IMG/VR virus record: IMGVR_UViG_3300035146_000036
Length of the DNA: 64,000 bases
Strand: one strand, 5' to 3'
Origin: a virus
Under the pieces are notes generated by a model. It ran no database searches. It saw only the letters and a program-made list of their open reading frames with translations, and was not told where the DNA came from. Shown here one piece after another: positions 2,723 through 47,049 of the stretch; position 1 is the stretch's first letter; each line of letters starts with the position of its first letter. The position numbers and the translations under genes are program-made.

Positions 2723-4060
2723 ATGTTAGATACAGTCAAAGATTTTGCAAATAAGTATTTTAAATGTTTTCCTGTATATCTTGTAGGAGGGGGTGTCATA
2801 GATTATCTTTGTGATCGTATTCCAAAAGATTTTGACATAGAAATTTATGGTTTATCAATAGACGAAATTTCAGACATATTAAAATCCAATGGTTTTGACG
2901 TTAATTTTGTTGGGGCAAGTTTTGGAATAATCAAGACAGTATACAAGAATATTGATTTGGATATTTCTGTTCCCAGGGTAGATAATAGAATTGGGAAAGG
3001 TCATAAAGGATTTGATTGTTCTTTTCCTTCCAATATTTCGCCGAAAGAAGCGTCAAGAAGAAGAGATTTGACGATTAATTCAATTTTTTTAGATCTTCAT
3101 ACTTTGGATATTCATGATCCATGGGGAGGAGTTGAGGATTTAAGCAAGGGTGTGCTGAAAGCAACTGATTCAACAACATTTATTGAGGACCCGTTGAGGG
3201 TGCTTAGGGTTATGCAACTGTTAGCAAGGAAGGGAAAAAGTGTTGATTCAGATACTGTTGACTTATGTATTAGTATGGTCGATAGTTTTGTTGATTTGCC
3301 CCAAGAAAGAGTTTTTGAAGAGTTTGTGAAGCTTTTTAGTGCTAGTCGTCCATCAAAAGGGTTAAGGTTTTTGGTAGATTCAAATTGGATTTTTTGTTTT
3401 CCAGAGTTGGAAAGCCTTATTGGATGTAAACAACATCCAGAATGGCATCCAGAAGGAGATGTCTGGGAACATACTCTAAGAGTTGTTGATTGGGCAGCTA
3501 AAGAGAAAGAAAATTTGGATGAGGATTGGCGTTTGGCGTTCATGTTTGGGGCATTGCTACATGACATTGGGAAGCCAGTGGTTGTGTCTGATGATTTTAC
3601 TTGTCATGGCCATGATTTGGCTGGAGAGCCATTGACTAGGTCATTCATGGAAAGGATTACAAGGGATAAGGAACTGATTGATAGAGTTGTTTGTATTGTT
3701 AGAAATCATATGAGATGTGGACAACTTAGTTTTGGCGATGCTAAGAAATCAGGATGGAAGAGATTACATAATGACCTTAGGTTGGATGTTGTAGCATTTC
3801 TTTCTAAGTGTGATTCATTGTCTAGATATAGTGAAGAATATGTATCAGGAATGGAATATGAGCCAAGTATGGTTGCTTTGCAGTATTTTGATGAATTTGG
3901 GAAAAAGCCAATTAAGCCTGTATTGATGGGGAGACATTTGATTGATGCAGGAATGAAGCCTGGCCCAGAGTTTGGTAAGATCTTGGATAGGGCATATGAT
4001 ATCCAAATTGAAGACGGAATTTCTTGTCTAGACACATTGTTGAGGTTGGTTAATGGGTGA
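2723..4060 (+). CDS. cca: CCA-adding tRNA nucleotidyltransferase with HD domain
   Basis: Pol-beta NTase head GGGVIDYL..DFDIEI; RRDLTINS motif; HD motif LLHDIGK; 445 aa. Confidence 0.8.
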   Translation: MLDTVKDFANKYFKCFPVYLVGGGVIDYLCDRIPKDFDIEIYGLSIDEISDILKSNGFDVNFVGASFGIIKTVYKNIDLDISVPRVDNRIGKGHKGFDCSFPSNISPKEASRRRDLTINSIFLDLHTLDIHDPWGGVEDLSKGVLKATDSTTFIEDPLRVLRVMQLLARKGKSVDSDTVDLCISMVDSFVDLPQERVFEEFVKLFSASRPSKGLRFLVDSNWIFCFPELESLIGCKQHPEWHPEGDVWEHTLRVVDWAAKEKENLDEDWRLAFMFGALLHDIGKPVVVSDDFTCHGHDLAGEPLTRSFMERITRDKELIDRVVCIVRNHMRCGQLSFGDAKKSGWKRLHNDLRLDVVAFLSKCDSLSRYSEEYVSGMEYEPSMVALQYFDEFGKKPIKPVLMGRHLIDAGMKPGPEFGKILDRAYDIQIEDGISCLDTLLRLVNG

Positions 4061-10571: not shown

Positions 10572-11804
10572 ATGAAAAGTTTAACTAAAAAGCAAATCGA
10601 AAAATTATCAATTTATAGAGATAAGTGGATACGAATAGGTACATCTATATTTGATATTGATGATCGTAAAATAGCTGAAAAGTATATTGATGATGTATAT
10701 TCGATTGCTGGATTTGAACCACCAAAATTTAAGATATGGTTATCTTCTCCTTATAGTGGTGTAATTGGAGTTGTGTTATTAAAACAGATTAGGGCTCAGG
10801 TTGGGGATCAGATTTGGGATCAGATTTGGGATCAGATTAGAAATCAGATTGTGGAACAGGTTGGGGAACAGGTCGGGGAACAGGTCTGGGAACAGGTCGG
10901 GCAACAGGTTGTGGAACATGTTGGGAATAAGGTTGGGGATCAGATTAAGGATCAGATTTGGTTTAAGAGTTTAGGTAAGGTTGTGAATCAGATTAGAAAT
11001 CATGTTGGGGATCAGATTTGGGAACAGATTAGAAATCAGATTAGAAATCAGATTAGAAATCAGGTTGGGGAACAGGTTGTGGAACAGGTTGGGGAACATG
11101 TTGTGGAACAGGTTGGGAATCAGATTGATGGTCAAAATTTGACATTTAACATTTGGCATCAGGTTGATGTTCAAACCTTTCAATGTGGATATGGAATTCA
11201 TGATGCTAACTTTTTATCATTTTATGATTATTTTGATAGTGAGGTATTATATAATTTGAATGAAATTAGGCCATTAATAAATTTGTCTAAATATGTTGGT
11301 TGGTGGTGGCCTTTTGAAAATGTAGTAATTTTTACGGATAAACCAATATTTGTTTGTTGTGATGACCGAGGTAGGCTTCATCATGAGAATAGGATGGCAT
11401 TAGAATATTCTGACGGATTCGGGATATACTCATGGCATGGCATTATGGTTTCAGAACAAATTATTATGAAACCAGAAACTATAACGTTAGACCAAGTAGT
11501 GAAAGAGAATAATCAGGAGATTCGTCGTATTATGTTGGATCGGTATGGATGGGATAGGGTTTTGTGTGATTTGCATGCTTGTGTAGAACATGAGGATAAT
11601 ACAGGAAAATTGATATCTACTTATAGGCTTGGAGAATATTTAGCTGGTGAAGATGAGATAGCAAAATTTGTATTAGTAGTTGACCCTTCTACTAATCGGA
11701 AATATTCATTAAGAGTACCACCCGAAACAAAAACAGCTAAAGAGGGAGTGGCATGGACATTTGGGCAAAAAGAAGATGAGTATAATCCAATAAAGGAGAC
11801 ATAG
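10572..11804 (+). CDS. tetrapeptide-repeat protein ((I/V)x(D/E)Q units) with globular C-terminal domain
   Basis: About 45 tandem 12-nt units at 10796-11140 encoding VGDQ/IWDQ/IRNQ/VGEQ...; promoter TTGACA 10495. Confidence 0.6.
   Translation: MKSLTKKQIEKLSIYRDKWIRIGTSIFDIDDRKIAEKYIDDVYSIAGFEPPKFKIWLSSPYSGVIGVVLLKQIRAQVGDQIWDQIWDQIRNQIVEQVGEQVGEQVWEQVGQQVVEHVGNKVGDQIKDQIWFKSLGKVVNQIRNHVGDQIWEQIRNQIRNQIRNQVGEQVVEQVGEHVVEQVGNQIDGQNLTFNIWHQVDVQTFQCGYGIHDANFLSFYDYFDSEVLYNLNEIRPLINLSKYVGWWWPFENVVIFTDKPIFVCCDDRGRLHHENRMALEYSDGFGIYSWHGIMVSEQIIMKPETITLDQVVKENNQEIRRIMLDRYGWDRVLCDLHACVEHEDNTGKLISTYRLGEYLAGEDEIAKFVLVVDPSTNRKYSLRVPPETKTAKEGVAWTFGQKEDEYNPIKET
10796..11140 (+). repeat. tandem 12-nt repeat array (~28 units) inside CDS 10572..11804
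   Basis: gatcagatttgg / gaacaggttggg variants encoding (I/V)x(D/E)Q. Confidence 0.8.
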
Positions 11805-16944: not shown

Positions 16945-17245
16945 ATTTGTAATGATGAAAGATGGTTTTTGGAAATGGGATATTGGTGGGTTGAGTTTTT
17001 TGATTGGTAGTACAAAAGAAAAAAATACATATTTAGCATTATGGGTAACAACTATTTCGATATTGAATTATAGAATGGTTGAAAGAAGAATTGTTGAAGG
17101 TAATTATGGATTGGTGTTAAAGAATTTAGAGAAAAAAGCATCAATTCTTTTGGTTAGAAGTAAAGTTAATGGTGGAAAAGATTTTATTGAATATATAAAC
17201 AAAAGACAAGAGGTAATGGATAGTTTGATGTGTGTTAGGTATTGA
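16922..17245 (+). CDS. hypothetical protein
   Basis: ORF track. Confidence 0.45.
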   Translation: MTSLVVNRFVMMKDGFWKWDIGGLSFLIGSTKEKNTYLALWVTTISILNYRMVERRIVEGNYGLVLKNLEKKASILLVRSKVNGGKDFIEYINKRQEVMDSLMCVRY

Positions 17246-17807
17246 TATGAATAAATTGGAAGATATGTCTAAAGCATTTGATTCATTAACTGGTGTTTGT
17301 GATAATTGTGGTTATACAGATGATAATATAGGTCGAAAAGAATGTTTAATGTGTGGAGCAAAGGCTTATGATGTAAAATTGCATGTTTTGGATAAAGATA
17401 GACCCAGTTTTCAAAAAATATATATGAATCTTGCGATTGATATTTCTAAACGGTCTACTTGTTCTAGGAGACAAGTAGGTTGTGTAATATCTTCTAGTGA
17501 TTTTAGAAGGATTCTTGCTGTTGGATATAATGGTAATGCTTCTGGGTTGCCCAATAAGTGTGATGCACCAAATGTTTCCTCAGGGTGTGGATGCATTCAT
17601 GCTGAGGAAAATGCTTGTATTTCTTGTGTTGAGCCAAGGAGTACAAAGAAAATAGTTTTTGTTACGGTTTTTCCTTGTAAGATGTGTGCAAAAAGATTTG
17701 TACAACTTGGTGGGGTTAAGCAAGTATATTATTTAGATGATTATCATGGTGAAGAAGCAAAATTTGTTTTTGATATGGCTGGAATTGAGTTTTGTCGTTT
17801 GTTGTAA
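17232..17807 (+). CDS. dCMP deaminase (CMP/dCMP-type zinc deaminase) with N-terminal zinc ribbon
   Basis: HAEENA ... PCKMC zinc-binding motifs; VGYNG; extra CDNCG..CLMCG ribbon at N-terminus. Confidence 0.8.
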   Translation: MLGIDMNKLEDMSKAFDSLTGVCDNCGYTDDNIGRKECLMCGAKAYDVKLHVLDKDRPSFQKIYMNLAIDISKRSTCSRRQVGCVISSSDFRRILAVGYNGNASGLPNKCDAPNVSSGCGCIHAEENACISCVEPRSTKKIVFVTVFPCKMCAKRFVQLGGVKQVYYLDDYHGEEAKFVFDMAGIEFCRLL

Positions 17808-19732: not shown

Positions 19733-20012
19733 AGATCTTGATAAATGTATAGCAATAATTCGTGAAGTATTTGGTAATCCTAGGATATTGATTGAATCAG
19801 TGATTGGTCCAGCAACTCATTATGATGATGATCCAGATTATTATATTGAAATGACGCTTTATCCATCAAAGTTTTTGGGTGATATATCAAAAGAAGAATT
19901 TAGAAAGAAAAGTTTGAAAGTGTATTCTATATTGAGACAAAAAGGATATAGAGATATTTGTGAAAAAGTTGTGATTAGAAAAGGTTGGAGTGGAAAGGAA
20001 GATAAAAAATGA
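19707..20012 (+). CDS. hypothetical protein
   Basis: ORF track. Confidence 0.5.
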   Translation: MKRMKEKFKDLDKCIAIIREVFGNPRILIESVIGPATHYDDDPDYYIEMTLYPSKFLGDISKEEFRKKSLKVYSILRQKGYRDICEKVVIRKGWSGKEDKK

Positions 20013-20722
20013 AAATTGTAGAACCATCAGTTGAAGTTATATTTTGGGCTCCTGAAGATAGTGGAACATTAGAGGAAGGAATTGAGAAAGCAGCAAGAAC
20101 TTGTTACAAAAGTGAAGGGAAAATTGGTGAAGGAACAGCGGATAAACTGATTAGGAAACTCAGAAAAAGTGGTCACCATGCTATGCTTGAATTTGGTTAT
20201 ATAATGGCAAGGATTATTGCGGACCGAGGTTTGAGTCATGAATTGGTAAGGCATAGATTGGCTTCCTTTGCACAGGAATCGACACGATGGTGCAATTACA
20301 ATTCTGAAAGATTTGATTCTGAAATTTCTGTAATAGAACCTCCAGGATTGACAGAGGAACAGAGAGTCATATGGTCTGTAGCAATGGCTGATGCTGAAAG
20401 ACATTATATGACTTTGATAAAAATTGGTGCTAAGCCACAAATAGCTAGGTCGGTTCTTCCGATAGGGTTAAAGACTGAGATTGTTATTGGGGCAAATCCA
20501 AGGGAATGGAGGCATATTTTTAAGATGAGGTGTGATAAATATGCTCACCCTATAATTAGGAGTATAATGATAGAGATTTTGTTGCAGTGTCGTGATAAAT
20601 ATCCTGCTATTTTTGATGATCTTTTTGATGATTTGCCTGATGAACTTATAAATAAATGGTCGGAATTAAAAGATAAAACTATGAGAGAAGTGATTATGAA
20701 ACATGTTGTTGACAAAACATGA
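20009..20722 (+). CDS. thyX: FAD-dependent thymidylate synthase ThyX
   Basis: Canonical ThyX motif RHRLASFAQESTRW (RHRx7-8S); 237 aa. Confidence 0.85.
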   Translation: MKIVEPSVEVIFWAPEDSGTLEEGIEKAARTCYKSEGKIGEGTADKLIRKLRKSGHHAMLEFGYIMARIIADRGLSHELVRHRLASFAQESTRWCNYNSERFDSEISVIEPPGLTEEQRVIWSVAMADAERHYMTLIKIGAKPQIARSVLPIGLKTEIVIGANPREWRHIFKMRCDKYAHPIIRSIMIEILLQCRDKYPAIFDDLFDDLPDELINKWSELKDKTMREVIMKHVVDKT

Positions 20723-37104: not shown

Positions 37105-38085
37105 GTGGATTATAGTAAAGAAGCGATAGATAACACTATCTTGAAGGTTAGAGTAGGATCTCATTTATTTGGGACAAATACAGAAGATAGTGATTTAGAT
37201 ATTGAAGGTATTTTTATGCCTCCAATATCTGTTTTATATGGTTTAGGGGAATGCAAGGAGGTTGATTTAAGTGAAGCATCAAAGGATGAAAAGGGTCGGA
37301 ATACATCTGATGCTATAGATTTTAAATTGAGAGAATACAGGACATTTATGCGATTAGCTATTCAGAATAATCCTAATATTTTGAATATTGTTTTTTCAAA
37401 TGATGAAAATGTTATTTTTCAAGACGAATTTGGAGAGCGATTGAGGGGAATGGCAGAGTATTTTCCATATAGAGATGGGTTAAGAAGGTATTATGGATAT
37501 GCTCAATCTCAATTGCAGAAAATGACTATTAAGCCAGATAATTATTCTTATTTAAACAAAGCGTTGGATTTTTTATCTGGATGTAATCAAAAAGCTATTC
37601 TTGTTGATGTAATAAGATCAAAATGTAATCCATTGGCTAGAGTGTTTATTGATAAGGGGCCTGGTAAGCATGTTGTTGTTGCTGATTTGCATTGTGAAAG
37701 GGGACTTCAAGTAGGAAAAGTTGTATCGATGATTAATGGTAGATTAGAAAGGGCTAGTTCAAGAGCTGATAATTGGGAAAGATTTGGATATGATGTGAAA
37801 TTTGCATCGAATTTGATTCAGATTTTAAAGCAAGGCATAGAGCTTGGTAAGACTGGTGTACTTAAATTTCCATTAGGATATAGAGATTTGATTCTTGATA
37901 TAAAGAAAGGCAAGTTTAAGTTATCTGAGGTTGATAATATGGCTACAGATTTGATTGAAGAAATGATTTCTATTATAGAGGGTGAATGTTGTTTGCCAAA
38001 GAAGCCTAGAAGGTTGGAAATTGGAAATTTCACTATTATTGAAGTAAAGAAATGGTGTGACAAGCAGTTTGTTAGTTGTCATTGA
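37105..38085 (+). CDS. Pol-beta superfamily nucleotidyltransferase-fold protein (GS-x11-DxD)
   Basis: VGSHLFGTNTEDSDLDIEGIF matches the NTase motif GS...(D/E)x(D/E) found in CD-NTases and MNT-type enzymes; 326 aa. Confidence 0.5.
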   Translation: MDYSKEAIDNTILKVRVGSHLFGTNTEDSDLDIEGIFMPPISVLYGLGECKEVDLSEASKDEKGRNTSDAIDFKLREYRTFMRLAIQNNPNILNIVFSNDENVIFQDEFGERLRGMAEYFPYRDGLRRYYGYAQSQLQKMTIKPDNYSYLNKALDFLSGCNQKAILVDVIRSKCNPLARVFIDKGPGKHVVVADLHCERGLQVGKVVSMINGRLERASSRADNWERFGYDVKFASNLIQILKQGIELGKTGVLKFPLGYRDLILDIKKGKFKLSEVDNMATDLIEEMISIIEGECCLPKKPRRLEIGNFTIIEVKKWCDKQFVSCH

Positions 38086-38131: not shown

Positions 38132-38147
38132 GCGAACTCGAGTTCGT
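38132..38147. promoter_or_regulatory. palindrome copy 8 (GCGAACTCGAGTTCGt)
   Basis: 15/16; directly upstream of TTGACA promoter 38155. Confidence 0.7.
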
Positions 38148-38217: not shown

Positions 38218-38664
38218 GTGATGGGTAATAAGATTGTGATTTGTCCATATTGTGGAAAGAAGGCTGAATTAAAAACTGGCAGAGAAATATATTTGGGTAG
38301 GGGTTCTTGGGATGGTAAAAAGTTTTGGGTTTGTGAGCCTTGTAATGCTTGGGTTGGGTGTCATGACCGAAATAAGAGATATGGGCGTGTTGGTGATGAA
38401 CCATTAGGTAGACTTGCTAATAAAGAGTTGAGAGAAGCGAAGATGAAAGCTCATTTGGCATTTGACCCTATTTGGAAAGAGAAAAGTATGAAGCGTAAAG
38501 AGGCTTATGCATGGCTTGCTAAGAAGTTAGGAATACCTGCTGAGGAATGTCATATAGGAATGTTTGATGTAGACATGTGTAGAGAAGTGGTAATAGTAAT
38601 GTCTGATTATTCGTTAGTAGTTGCAAATGCAATTTGTGGGCATCAACTTGGGAAATTGGAATGA
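38218..38664 (+). CDS. zinc-ribbon domain protein
   Basis: CPYCGK...CEPC..W.GCH. Confidence 0.5.
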   Translation: MMGNKIVICPYCGKKAELKTGREIYLGRGSWDGKKFWVCEPCNAWVGCHDRNKRYGRVGDEPLGRLANKELREAKMKAHLAFDPIWKEKSMKRKEAYAWLAKKLGIPAEECHIGMFDVDMCREVVIVMSDYSLVVANAICGHQLGKLE

Positions 38665-38879
38665 AAATGTCTAATAATAAATATAGGCTAAATATTGAAC
38701 TTACAGATCAAGTAATGAAAAGATTGAACAAATTAGTTGTGGAAAGTGATTCAAGTTCTAAGACTGATGTTATTAGAAAATCGCTTGCTTTATATGAGAC
38801 AATAATGCGGATTCGAAAAGAAGATGGACAAGTTATATTATTATTAAGAGACGGAAATCAGATGGAATTGGTATTTTAA
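38634..38879 (+). CDS. ribbon-helix-helix-like small DNA-binding protein (likely start ATG 38657)
   Basis: YRLNIELTDQVMKRLNKLV resembles the RHH beta-strand + helix. Confidence 0.4.
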   Translation: MWASTWEIGMKMSNNKYRLNIELTDQVMKRLNKLVVESDSSSKTDVIRKSLALYETIMRIRKEDGQVILLLRDGNQMELVF

Positions 38880-38950: not shown

Positions 38951-39151
38951 TTGGGGAGTTTATTAATGGAAACAAATGAACAATTTTATAATGATATTGA
39001 TAAAGCAAGAGAAGAAGGAAAGATTAGTTTAACAGAATGGGAGATTGATTTTATTGATTCAATTGGTGAACGATTGGATATGGGACGTGATTTATCCAGG
39101 AAACAGCGTGAAACGCTGGATAGAATTCATGAAAAAATAAGACCATGGTAG
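38951..39151 (+). CDS. hypothetical protein
   Basis: ORF track. Confidence 0.45.
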   Translation: MGSLLMETNEQFYNDIDKAREEGKISLTEWEIDFIDSIGERLDMGRDLSRKQRETLDRIHEKIRPW

Positions 39152-39630
39152 ATGATAAATATTTAATAGATGCAGCTGTTAGAATACTTGCATCTGTTTC
39201 TGATAGACACCTTGATGTGATTAAGCTTAATAAAATTCTTTTTTATCTTGATTTGAAATCATTGCTTGAGTGTAGTGAAACAGTAACTCATAAAGATTTT
39301 ATTGCAATAAAGCAGGGGCCAGTAATTTTAAATTACAGAAAATGTCTTGTTGATTCTATGAAAGAAAAAGGTTTGATTGTTGTTGAAGGTGATACGTTAA
39401 TATTGTTGAACAGGACAGGTTTTGATGGGAAATTTTATTCTGATGAATTTTTATATGTTTTAGACCTTAGCAATGATGATTCTTTTTGGGATTGGTATAA
39501 AGAAAATATTGGTTGGCAGATTGCATATAGAGAGGGATTAGGAAGAGGGAGGAAACCACAATTTATTAATATGCATTTGGCTATGCAACAGATAGTTGAT
39601 GATAATTGGAGGTATGAAAATGTTGAATAG
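39145..39630 (+). CDS. Panacea-domain (DUF4065/SocA-like) protein
   Basis: LNKILFYLDLKSLLECSETVTHKDFIAIKQGPVI matches the Panacea core (KL.KLLY..D.......G.P...E.F.A...GPV). Confidence 0.55.
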   Translation: MVDDKYLIDAAVRILASVSDRHLDVIKLNKILFYLDLKSLLECSETVTHKDFIAIKQGPVILNYRKCLVDSMKEKGLIVVEGDTLILLNRTGFDGKFYSDEFLYVLDLSNDDSFWDWYKENIGWQIAYREGLGRGRKPQFINMHLAMQQIVDDNWRYENVE

Positions 39631-39805: not shown

Positions 39806-40018
39806 ATGAAACCTATTATAAAAGTAAGTGGTGAAGTTATTACTATTAAAGAGTTGAAGGATTTTGTAAAAGATTTACCAGAAAAAGATAGTTATACTGG
39901 TGATGATTATGAAGTATGGATTGGTAGAGGAAATATATCAAATCCATGTAGACAATTATGGACATTAAATAAGAGTGACCGTGGTTGTGATATTTTATTG
40001 AGTGATGATGTTGGTTAA
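39806..40018 (+). CDS. hypothetical protein
   Basis: ORF track. Confidence 0.5.
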   Translation: MKPIIKVSGEVITIKELKDFVKDLPEKDSYTGDDYEVWIGRGNISNPCRQLWTLNKSDRGCDILLSDDVG

Positions 40019-40042
40019 AGTAATTATTGGAATAGCAATTAA

Positions 40043-40282
40043 ATGAGTACCGTGAAGATAAAAAATGATGCTGATCTAAAAAAAGCTTTTAATCGTCTCG
40101 ATGAAATTTGGACATCAAAGCCAGGTGAAGAGAACTGGGAAGAACGTTGTGACTTGGTGGACAAGATTGAACAATATGAGAATTTGACTGTTGATATTTC
40201 TCCACCAAATCCGGTTGATGCGATTCTTTTTAGAATGGAGCAAAGTAACCTGCTTTTGGAGGTGATTAATAATGAAAAATAA
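40043..40282 (+). CDS. HigA-type antitoxin N-terminal domain protein (stand-alone)
   Basis: IKNDADLKKAFNRLDEIWTSKPGEENWEERCDLVDKIEQYE matches the HigA N-domain pattern (I.tE.dYe.Al..i..L...pgt.e.d.L..L..LIe.YE). Confidence 0.5.
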   Translation: MSTVKIKNDADLKKAFNRLDEIWTSKPGEENWEERCDLVDKIEQYENLTVDISPPNPVDAILFRMEQSNLLLEVINNEK

Positions 40283-40520
40283 TGAATTTGGTAGGCATCT
40301 AAATGCTATCCGCATTAGCAAAAATATAAGTCTTGATGAATTAGCAAATGAAACCCAAATAGCTTCATGGGTTTTATGGAGTTATGAAGAAGGGAAGGAA
40401 ATTCCTAAAAAACCTAAAGTGCATGCGATAGCAAGAGCATTAGGTTGTGATGCTAGGAATCTTTTGGATTCAAGGAAGTATTCATTAGCGGAGAAACGGA
40501 GAAACAGCAATGAAATTTGA
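40272..40520 (+). CDS. XRE-family HTH protein (possible C-terminal half of a split HigA-like regulator)
   Basis: FGRHLNAIRISKNISLDELANETQIA...IPKKPKVHAIARALGCDARNLL = Cro/C1-type HTH; overlaps the previous ORF by 11 nt in another frame. Confidence 0.5.
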   Translation: MKNNEFGRHLNAIRISKNISLDELANETQIASWVLWSYEEGKEIPKKPKVHAIARALGCDARNLLDSRKYSLAEKRRNSNEI

Positions 40521-40776
40521 GGAGAACAAATCAATAGGGCATAAGGAAGGGGATTTTTTTATTGGTGGAAAGATGGTAACAGTACCAATTCCTCAATGGG
40601 AGAACACCTCACAAGGTGATGCTATACGTTGTAAAAGAAGAGCAAGTGGTATTACATTGAGAAGAGCTGCATCTATGATAGGAATAACTGGTACAGAATT
40701 GACAGGGTTAGAGATAGGGAAATATAGTATTTCAGAAGATGATTTTGATGATATTATGAGAAAATTGAGTGAGTAA
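40510..40776 (+). CDS. XRE-family HTH protein
   Basis: ITLRRAASMIGITGTELTGLEIGK HTH. Confidence 0.45.
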   Translation: MKFEENKSIGHKEGDFFIGGKMVTVPIPQWENTSQGDAIRCKRRASGITLRRAASMIGITGTELTGLEIGKYSISEDDFDDIMRKLSE

Positions 40777-40778
40777 TA

Positions 40779-41060
40779 ATGTTTGATAAATATGATGAAA
40801 TGATAAAACGTGAAAGGGAAAAATGGCTTTGTGAAAGAAAAAAATGGTATAATAAAATTGAAAAAAATTTTGAGGTAAAATCATGTAAAGGTTTAGCTAA
40901 TAAATATTGGTTTATTTTAGCAGTAATATTTTTATCTTTGGTATCTTTGCCTTTTTGGGTTCCTACTAATATTTTAAGAATAATAGGTAATGTTTTCCCA
41001 TTAATTGGATTATGTTTGTCATTGTTAGCATTATTATTATTATTTTATAGGAATAGGTGA
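40779..41060 (+). CDS. small membrane protein (2 TM)
   Basis: YWFILAVIFLSLVSLPFWV and LIGLCLSLLALLLLF. Confidence 0.5.
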   Translation: MFDKYDEMIKREREKWLCERKKWYNKIEKNFEVKSCKGLANKYWFILAVIFLSLVSLPFWVPTNILRIIGNVFPLIGLCLSLLALLLLFYRNR

Positions 41061-44901: not shown

Positions 44902-45216
44902 GTGAAGCATTTAATTTTTACTGCAAAATACAACAGATTGATATCTAATAATGAAATTTTATCTATATTTCATGGTGCTTGTGAAAAAGCTAATGCTCAT
45001 ATTAGGCGTTCTATTGAATATTCATTTTATCCTGGTGGTTTTACAGCGGTAGTTATATTAGCTGAGAGTCACGCATCAATTCATACGTGGCCAGAAACCG
45101 GATTGATAAGGGTTGATTTCTTTTCTTGTTCTATGTCTCCAAATTTTGATGATTTTACAGATTATTTTAGGGAAAGTGGATTTATTGTGAACAAAGTTGA
45201 TATTTTGGAGAGATGA
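44902..45216 (+). CDS. speH: S-adenosylmethionine decarboxylase proenzyme (pyruvoyl-dependent, SpeH/SpeD-type)
   Basis: LAESHASIHTWPE contains the ES self-cleavage site and TWPE hallmark; about 100 aa small archaeal/Bacillus-type form. Confidence 0.7.
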   Translation: MKHLIFTAKYNRLISNNEILSIFHGACEKANAHIRRSIEYSFYPGGFTAVVILAESHASIHTWPETGLIRVDFFSCSMSPNFDDFTDYFRESGFIVNKVDILER

Positions 45217-45627: not shown

Positions 45628-45978
45628 GGGGTCGATTTGGTTTCGACATTTGACTAGATTGATATTATGCATGTTCCGCTTTGGGTATTCAGCGGATTAA
45701 AAAGAATGCTTGAATACAATCGTCAGACATAACGATAGCCAAGTTTGGGCTGAAGCTGCCTAAACCGTCCAAGTGCTGATTGCCTGTGTAGGTATAAGGG
45801 CGTCATTTTTACAGGATAGTGACCATTTTTCATGGGAAATGGTGAGCGAAAATGACCATGAAGAATTTGTATGTAGTTGTCTATCATTGCATGCAAATTA
45901 TTTAGATAGACTAAACATGTGAAGATTAATATTGAGATGTCTAAATGGACTGGGGTTCGATTCCCCACGACTCCAACT
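45628..45978 (+). ncRNA. ssrA: tmRNA (ssrA-like), tag approx (A)NDSQVWAEAA
   Basis: 5' GGGGUCGAUUUGGUUUCGAC matches the tmRNA 5' consensus GGGGnnGAUUnnGGnUUCGAC; 3' T-arm CUGGGGUUCGAUUCCCCA + acceptor CGACUCC pairing with 5' GGGGUCG; tag ORF aac gat agc caa gtt tgg gct gaa gct gcc TAA at 45731-45763, about 100 nt from the 5' end as in E. coli (ANDENYALAA); CCA not encoded. Confidence 0.75.
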
Positions 45979-46675: not shown

Positions 46676-46750
46676 TCGGGATGTAGCGCAGTCTGGTTAG
46701 CGCACTTGATTTGGGGTCAAGGGGTCATAGGTTCGAATCCTATCATTCCG
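46676..46750 (+). tRNA. tRNA-Pro (anticodon UGG)
   Basis: Acceptor CGGGATG/CATTCCG (C1-G72 as in bacterial tRNA-Pro), D-arm GCGC-AGTCTGGTTA-GCGC, anticodon arm CTTGA-TTTGGGG-TCAAG (UGG), T-arm ATAGG-TTCGAAT-CCTAT, discriminator A, no encoded CCA. Confidence 0.8.
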
Positions 46751-47049
46751 ACGAGGAGCAGCCTCAAAACTGCAATATAGGTGAAAGTCCTTAAGGATGT
46801 TAACGATGTGAGAACATTTAAGTGTTGTTTTCCTCTGGCGAATTGGCTAAGTCATGAAACCACAAGGCATCCTTGCCACTGTTGCTGTGCAGTATCACAG
46901 TGTCTATGTCCTATAATCAGTTTGTTTTAGAAGACGTTCTAGACAAAGATGAATAAGGAGTAGACCGGGTTTGCTGATTGTCCGAGAAACGAATTAGACC
47001 TATATGGAGTGAGCCATACAGCTTGGTGCGATGCCAGGCATTTAAATAT

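Follow-up and report, generated by a model that had tools for sequence, protein, structure and literature searches.

A predicted RNA 3'-end nucleotidyltransferase of the RlaP family encoded by a divergent T4-like phage

The 326-aa nucleotidyltransferase (NTase) encoded at positions 37105..38085 (+ strand) of the window, by which we mean the whole 64-kb stretch of DNA analysed, is close to certainly a member of the RlaP family, as judged from its sequence. It is probably a catalytically competent RlaP of the T4 NrdC.11 type, which would add nucleotides to RNA 3'-OH ends and take part in tRNA repair. We infer its activity, its RNA substrate, the metal it prefers and its role in counter-defence from the bacterial RlaPs and from gene linkage. 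An earlier note on this DNA had described the enzyme as one of unknown role, a description superseded by its assignment to PF10127/RlaP, a family characterised biochemically in 2025 (PMC12776372). The practical value of the assignment lies in a corrected annotation, namely an RlaP/NrdC.11-type RNA 3'-end NTase and not a CD-NTase.

Family membership

The open reading frame, taken from the ORF list, starts with a GTG codon. A Shine-Dalgarno-like AGGAG is read in the sequence at 37093-37097 of the + strand, 7 nt 5' of this start, and in the alignment the starting M-D-Y is common to the homologs. Scans for transcription signals near the gene remained at chance level, with 16 promoter-like sites for 15 expected and 1 terminator-like site (38132-38147) for 0.9 expected.

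The protein matches the Pfam profile PF10127 (RlaP, 'RNA repair pathway DNA polymerase beta family') with 59.0 bits, for a cut-off of 23 (E 7.7e-16). The match extends from residue 10 to residue 141 and covers positions 19-141 of the 249 of the model, i.e. the NTase half only, model positions 142-249 (the C-terminal domain) being unaligned. The phrog_388 profile ('nucleotidyltransferase') is matched over residues 4-309 (E 1.1e-46). A search among 5.8 billion proteins gave 38 homologs with 42-100% identity, all 38 of which are precomputed as PF10127. When the homolog profile was compared with 1.84 billion representatives, 9,819 clusters were found at E<=1e-3 and 1,128 at E<=1e-30. Moreover, tblastn located homologs in 1,671 deposited phage genomes, mainly in the nrdC.x region of T4-like phages of enterobacteria. 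The IMG/VR collection returned no relatives when scanned with the single protein, and homolog loci when scanned with an alignment. No NCBIfam match was obtained at E<=1, and sequence searches of the PDB, whether run with the single protein or the profile of 37 homologs, produced only chance-level matches to uL22 and ART.

The named relative of reference is T4 NrdC.11 (NP_049709.1; gene nrdC.11). BLASTP aligns it to residues 11-287 of the window NTase (2e-21, 25% identity), and hhalign gives a probability of 99.4% over 274 columns. Both domains align, over about 300 residues, and the two proteins share the G-S...D-x-D...D residues as well as a G-x-D-x-K motif in the C-terminal domain. NrdC.11 itself matches PF10127 with 46.6 bits, again through its N-terminal NTase half only. 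This common partial match, together with the alignment, indicates that the window NTase is by sequence typical of the NrdC.11-like RlaPs of phages. The differences reside in an identity of only 25-27% to T4 NrdC.11 and phrog_388 and in a middle insert (residues ~145-205) of different sequence. The window NTase is a new divergent member of a known, very large family, and no feature separates this copy from the thousands of other RlaPs.

Active site and predicted fold

The Pol-beta NTase motif reads G18-S19-x10-D30-L-D32 in the window protein and is encoded at 37156..37200 (+ strand) as a nucleotide- and metal-binding motif. The peptide VGSHLFGTNTEDSDLDIEGIF, quoted in the earlier note, corresponds to residues 17-37. 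That note had proposed a GS-x11-DxD enzyme; the motif is indeed present in the ORF it named and agrees with the family, and the spacing is of ten residues, not eleven. Conservation was assessed with two alignments, A1 containing 37 close homologs and A2 containing 12 deliberately diverse homologs, among which are T4 NrdC.11 and ligase-linked, CCA-linked and short RlaP forms. G18, S19, D30 and D32 are invariant in both alignments. A third catalytic acid, which the note had suggested looking for, is found in D72 (37318..37320, + strand), the predicted third carboxylate, likewise invariant in A1 and A2 and located in an I-D-F sequence at the start of modelled strand 71-77. The family match over the whole ORF and the invariance of these residues argue that the motif does not result from chance. 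On these alignments the catalytic triad is intact.

An AlphaFold2 model calculated from the 37-sequence alignment (pLDDT 91.8, pTM 0.86) displays two domains. The N-terminal Pol-beta NTase domain spans about residues 1-120 (37105..37464, + strand), in agreement with the Pfam RlaP match, and contains strands 11-17, 31-37 and 71-77 and helix 18-22. It is followed by a helical, KNTase-C/HEPN-like domain of about residues 126-302 (37480..38010, + strand), formed by long helices 126-158, 203-250 and 273-292 with a small β insert at residues ~181-197. A long C-terminal helix, residues 303-325 (38011..38079, + strand), completes the model. The conserved residues of the C-terminal domain in A1 are R213, R220, D230 and K232. 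The last three belong to an R220...G-x-D230-x-K232-F motif (37762..37800, + strand), in which all three are invariant in A1 and K232 is also invariant in A2.

Several RlaP homologs of ~670 aa (P0052, P0054, P0071, P0084 and P0104) carry a LAGLIDADG intein-like insertion of ~350 aa. The insertion falls exactly between D230 and K232 in the helical domain, so that P0104 reads ...YGVD, then the insert, then TKF.... Inteins typically sit at functionally critical sites. The location of this one therefore supports the importance of the C-terminal motif.

The solved folds nearest to the model, according to Foldseek, are the two-domain NTases 3c18 and KNTase/ANT(4'), followed by HalB, AadA and LinB. 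A search of BFVD returned many phage models annotated as nucleotidyltransferase, with TM values of 0.55-0.69. A small-molecule NTase of the KNTase, ANT or Lnu type, modifying an antibiotic or a metabolite, is nevertheless hardly credible, since the TM-scores to these enzymes are low (about 0.3), the identity is of 8-14% and no resistance family is matched in Pfam or NCBIfam. In addition, the substrates on which RlaPs were active are RNAs, not proteins or DNA (PMC12776372).

HalB, also among the near folds, raises the possibility of an enzyme of the Hailong or MenT/AbiEii/MNT-like kind, which would produce free oligodeoxyadenylate signals or exert toxic nucleotidylation of a tRNA or of a HEPN partner. 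HalB (PDB 9dbh) is only 217 aa long, synthesises free oligodeoxyadenylate and has the HalA channel as its partner, whereas the window NTase has no conserved partner of this kind: its membrane-protein neighbour occurs in 0/80 IMG/VR loci. HalB and the window NTase are only 10% identical, and the latter belongs by sequence to RlaP rather than to HalB or MNT. MNT-HEPN toxin-antitoxin pairs combine a small MNT with a HEPN protein carrying an Rx4-6H motif, an arrangement that differs from that of the window NTase. No His of its C-terminal domain is conserved in A1 or A2, leaving no Rx4-6H motif, which indicates that the helical domain is not a HEPN nuclease. Finally, the conservation and synteny of the gene are those of a phage gene and not of a mobile two-gene cassette. 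We therefore regard a HalB- or MNT-like function as very unlikely.

The same question arises for the CD-NTases. The earlier note had suggested a CD-NTase-like enzyme, i.e. a relative of cGAS that could make or mimic a nucleotide second messenger in defence or anti-defence. The Pol-beta GS...DxD motif, the size of about 330 aa and the presence of toxin-antitoxin-like small genes nearby speak for such an enzyme. However, what cGAS, DncV and CdnC have in common with the window NTase is only the GS...DxD...D active site of the superfamily. A PADLOC search with the NTase and three of its neighbours gave no match, the NTase having none at E<=1, and Pfam at E<=0.1 yielded RlaP only for this protein, with no CD-NTase profile. 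The fold match of CdnC to the model is negligible (rank 49, probability 0.07), so that a cGAS/DncV-type fold is not recovered, and PADLOC detected no CBASS effector or Cap gene among the neighbours tested. Lacking a profile match, a fold match of any weight and a CBASS context, the CD-NTase reading is disfavoured and appears highly improbable. Thus the antibiotic-modifying, HalB/MNT-like and CD-NTase readings each carry very little probability, and the RlaP assignment is retained in what follows.

RNA-repair genes and proposed role

The RlaP family was named by Burroughs and Aravind after its linkage to RNA ligases, as recounted in two later papers (PMC12776372, PMC7824862). It was predicted to act in RNA repair, and its biochemistry was described in a preprint of December 2025 by Carruthers, Fatma & Huang on two Pseudomonas RlaPs, PfRlaP and PaRlaP, the only members for which such data are known, whose genes lie between rtcB and rtcA (PMC12776372). 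These enzymes add 1-2 NMPs to an RNA 3'-OH, accept any NTP and also dATP, are inactive on DNA and protein, and prefer Mn2+ or Co2+ to Mg2+ (PMC12776372). They favour the 5' half of a cleaved-tRNA mimic, and a tRNA repaired after the loss of one nucleotide of its anticodon loop is better aminoacylated with RlaP (PMC12776372). RNAs of rRNA and tRNA size are also labelled by bacterial RlaP, whichever NTP is supplied (PMC12776372), which points to a loose specificity. The crystal structure of PfRlaP opens with the NTase domain, continues with a helical C-terminal domain and ends in a helix that returns to the NTase domain; three aspartates are strictly conserved (PMC12776372). That RlaP serves in vivo as an antidote to nucleotide-removing ribotoxins such as RloC is the explicit proposal of the authors, who place T4 NrdC.11 in the family as a protein 'of unknown function' (PMC12776372). 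A review of jumbo phages describes RlaP as the most prevalent NTase of this kind, with a distribution that parallels that of RNA ligases (PMC7824862). The nrdC.11 block can be missing from a viable genome-reduced T4 (PMC9825161); this counts among the points against the mechanism proposed below, and it also fits an accessory, conflict-related role.

The RlaPs of P. fluorescens and P. aeruginosa belong to the same Pfam family as the window NTase and share its three conserved aspartates. The order of elements in the PfRlaP crystal structure (NTase domain, helical domain, terminal helix) is the same as in the predicted model of the window protein, and the predicted chemistry, addition of an NMP to an RNA 3'-OH, is the same as well. 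The C-terminal domain of the window protein diverges from the assayed bacterial type, and its substrate specificity could thus differ. The gene context is also different. The bacterial rlaP genes lie in an operon, with rtcB and rtcA on either side, whereas the window NTase has no ligase gene within the 64 kb: searches for Rnl1, Rnl2, RtcB, RtcA and Pnkp by tblastn, by phage-homolog profiles, by Pfam on ORFs of at least 160 aa and by PHROG on the larger ORFs found none in the window. In this respect it resembles T4 nrdC.11, since both are single genes in an early/accessory region of a T4-like myovirus with no adjoining RNA ligase, nrdC.11 being away from rnlA, rnlB and pseT. The only other RNA-end repair enzyme encoded in the window is a CCA-adding enzyme (2723..4060, + strand), recognised by Pfam through its PolyA_pol head, RNA-binding and HD domains and situated 33 kb upstream of the NTase gene. 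From this we consider it possible that the CCA-adding enzyme is a functional companion of the NTase.

Linkage was examined in 80 IMG/VR loci containing an NTase homolog with 10-kb flanks, and the figures are raw counts that include near-duplicate loci and come with no background rate. Within 10 kb of the RlaP homolog, an Rnl1-like gene is present in 11/80 loci, a Pnkp-like gene in 9/80, RtcB in 6/80 and a CCA-adding enzyme in 29/80, at least one of the four being present in 42/80. A ligase or Pnkp accompanies the homolog in 19/80 loci. The branch of the window NTase itself (>=36% identity) has an RNA-repair gene within 10 kb in 14/28 loci, with RtcB in L010, L033 and L035. Probes of T4 Rnl2 and E. 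coli RtcA gave no usable match in any locus. The CCA-adding gene is commoner near RlaP homologs than the RNA ligases and is often directly adjacent, for instance in L041-L044 and L051. Adjacency to an RNA ligase is therefore typical of the family and not universal, as the 19/80 count and the position of T4 nrdC.11 apart from its ligase genes illustrate.

Short RlaPs of ~250 aa are encoded in L041-L044, L046 and L051, immediately beside a CCA-adding gene; they are devoid of the middle insert, which corresponds to residues ~148-220 of the window protein. A homolog of 665 aa, P0135, appears to be a fusion of RlaP (residues 18-315) with DUF5131 (PF07505, E 7.7e-49), which could be either real or an artefact of gene calling.

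The mechanism that we consider probable would proceed as follows. D30, D32 and D72 would hold two divalent metals, probably Mn2+, together with the NTP, and a positively charged cleft between the NTase and helical domains would bind the broken RNA. The enzyme would then extend the RNA 3'-OH by one or two nucleotides without a template. In the infected cell this would restore the nucleotides trimmed from tRNAs cleaved by host anticodon nucleases of the RloC type or, alternatively, those missing at the 3' ends of other damaged RNAs. An RNA ligase of phage or host origin could subsequently reseal the RNA into a usable molecule, and the phage CCA-adding enzyme would cover damage to the acceptor end.

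The absence of a ligase gene from the window and the frequent linkage to CCA-adding genes sustain the main rival of this mechanism, in which the same chemistry is directed at another target. An enzyme of RlaP fold would act independently of any ligase on other RNA 3' ends, for instance on tRNA acceptor ends in concert with the CCA-adding enzyme, or would mark host RNAs. The CCA-adding gene, often adjacent, is indeed the most frequent neighbour among the 80 loci, and the loose specificity of the bacterial RlaPs would accommodate such targets. However, the related contigs are 124-188 kb long, hence the window holds only part of the phage genome and a ligase gene may lie elsewhere, or the RtcB of the host could serve. 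The CCA-adding gene is distant in the window itself, and homologs of the same branch lie near RtcB or Rnl1-like genes. We consider this rival unlikely on balance. A specific form of it, in which the NTase would work with the CCA-adding enzyme of the phage to restore tRNAs damaged at their 3' ends by host nucleases, is suggested by the divergent C-terminal domain, the distinctive middle insert, the usual CCA linkage and the lack of a ligase here; it seems to us a quite doubtful proposition. If true, the phage would counter host defence by a route other than the 'fill in, then ligate' one proposed for the bacterial RlaPs. As to the preferred mechanism, repair of cleaved tRNAs by nucleotide addition followed by ligation, any phage RlaP, that of the window included, could serve to test the anticodon-nuclease antidote model.

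Gene neighbourhood and other features of the phage

The NTase gene is followed by genes for a DUF3268 zinc-finger protein (38218-38664) and an RHH protein (38634-38879), by a Panacea-like ORF (39145-39630) that scores 25.3 bits in Pfam, just under the cut-off of 25.7, and by two XRE-type HTH ORFs (40272-40776). Small ORFs of an insertion region occupy 39806-40282 and 40779-41060. The zinc-finger, RHH and Panacea-like neighbours named in the earlier note are thus present, the Panacea assignment being below the cut-off, and the HTH pair, which it took for a split HigA module, is assigned here to the XRE type only. The functional meaning it attached to these neighbours finds no support in related phages. 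The RHH and Panacea-like genes, a 79-aa ORF and a 93-aa membrane ORF are present in 0/85 related loci, and a 70-aa ORF has a match in L013 only. In the 75%-identical relative L005, and also in L007, the flanking genes are contiguous without the RHH gene, the Panacea-like gene and three small ORFs. This shows that the RHH and Panacea-like genes and the 79-aa and 93-aa ORFs are strain-specific insertions and not partners of the NTase. The region downstream of the NTase looks like a hotspot for the insertion of strain-specific small genes, which are possibly toxin-antitoxin-like morons.

Upstream, and on the + strand as well, are found genes for a 172-aa single-pass membrane protein (35721-36239), a 60-aa ORF that bears the N-terminal methylation motif of type IV pilins (36226-36408; Pfam N_methyl, E 1.3e-8) and a protein of 206 aa whose N-terminus is signal- or lipoprotein-like (36449-37069). 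These three genes, together with the DUF3268, the two XRE-type HTH and an MVP-like gene, are syntenic in the three closest relatives only, in a rearranged order in L003. The membrane, pilin-like and 206-aa trio is kept beside the NTase gene in L003-L007, on its opposite side in L003. A functional module made of the NTase and this trio was considered and was rejected as a family feature, being shared by the three closest relatives only. None of the neighbours is conserved throughout the 80 IMG/VR loci or is a family-wide partner of the NTase.

The MVP-like gene (30675-33329, + strand) encodes a protein of 884 aa with a Pfam MVP_shoulder match (E 3.6e-24) and a weak Vault_3 match. It is also present in L003 (6037-8691) and L005 (2799-5429), and its product is conserved in related phage contigs (55-81% identity). 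A 2023 preprint had already described MVPs encoded by phages of the human gut (10.1101/2023.11.10.566534).

The window derives from a very divergent T4-like myovirus, with a gp20 portal protein, a gp21-type protease, a gp23 capsid protein and a large terminase. Its major capsid protein has at most 32% identity to that of any deposited phage, and a megablast search with 20 kb of the window against deposited phages gave no match. A full-length tmRNA is encoded at 45628-45978 (+ strand; Rfam RF00023, 110 bits for a gathering score of 47; ARAGORN tag VRHNDSQVWAEAA*), and a tRNA-Pro(UGG) is located 0.7 kb 3' of it, at 46677-46752 (+ strand). This phage therefore adds one more very divergent T4-like lineage in which an RlaP gene coexists with a CCA-adding enzyme, a tmRNA and a tRNA, a set that fits the view that large phages protect the RNA pool of translation against host ribotoxins.

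Other products encoded in the window are a sigma-70 region 3/4 protein (2001-2636), a DUF6745 protein of 410 aa (10572-11804), a dCMP deaminase (17232-17807), ThyX (20009-20722) and an S-adenosylmethionine decarboxylase (44902-45216), as well as a thymidylate kinase, a DHH protein and a SNF2 helicase. The GC content of the window is 31-38%, and its two strands are extremely asymmetric. All convincing ORFs are on the + strand. Over positions 1-64000 this strand contains 10.1% C for 24% G, and the GC skew is of +0.27 to +0.56 in every 2-kb bin.
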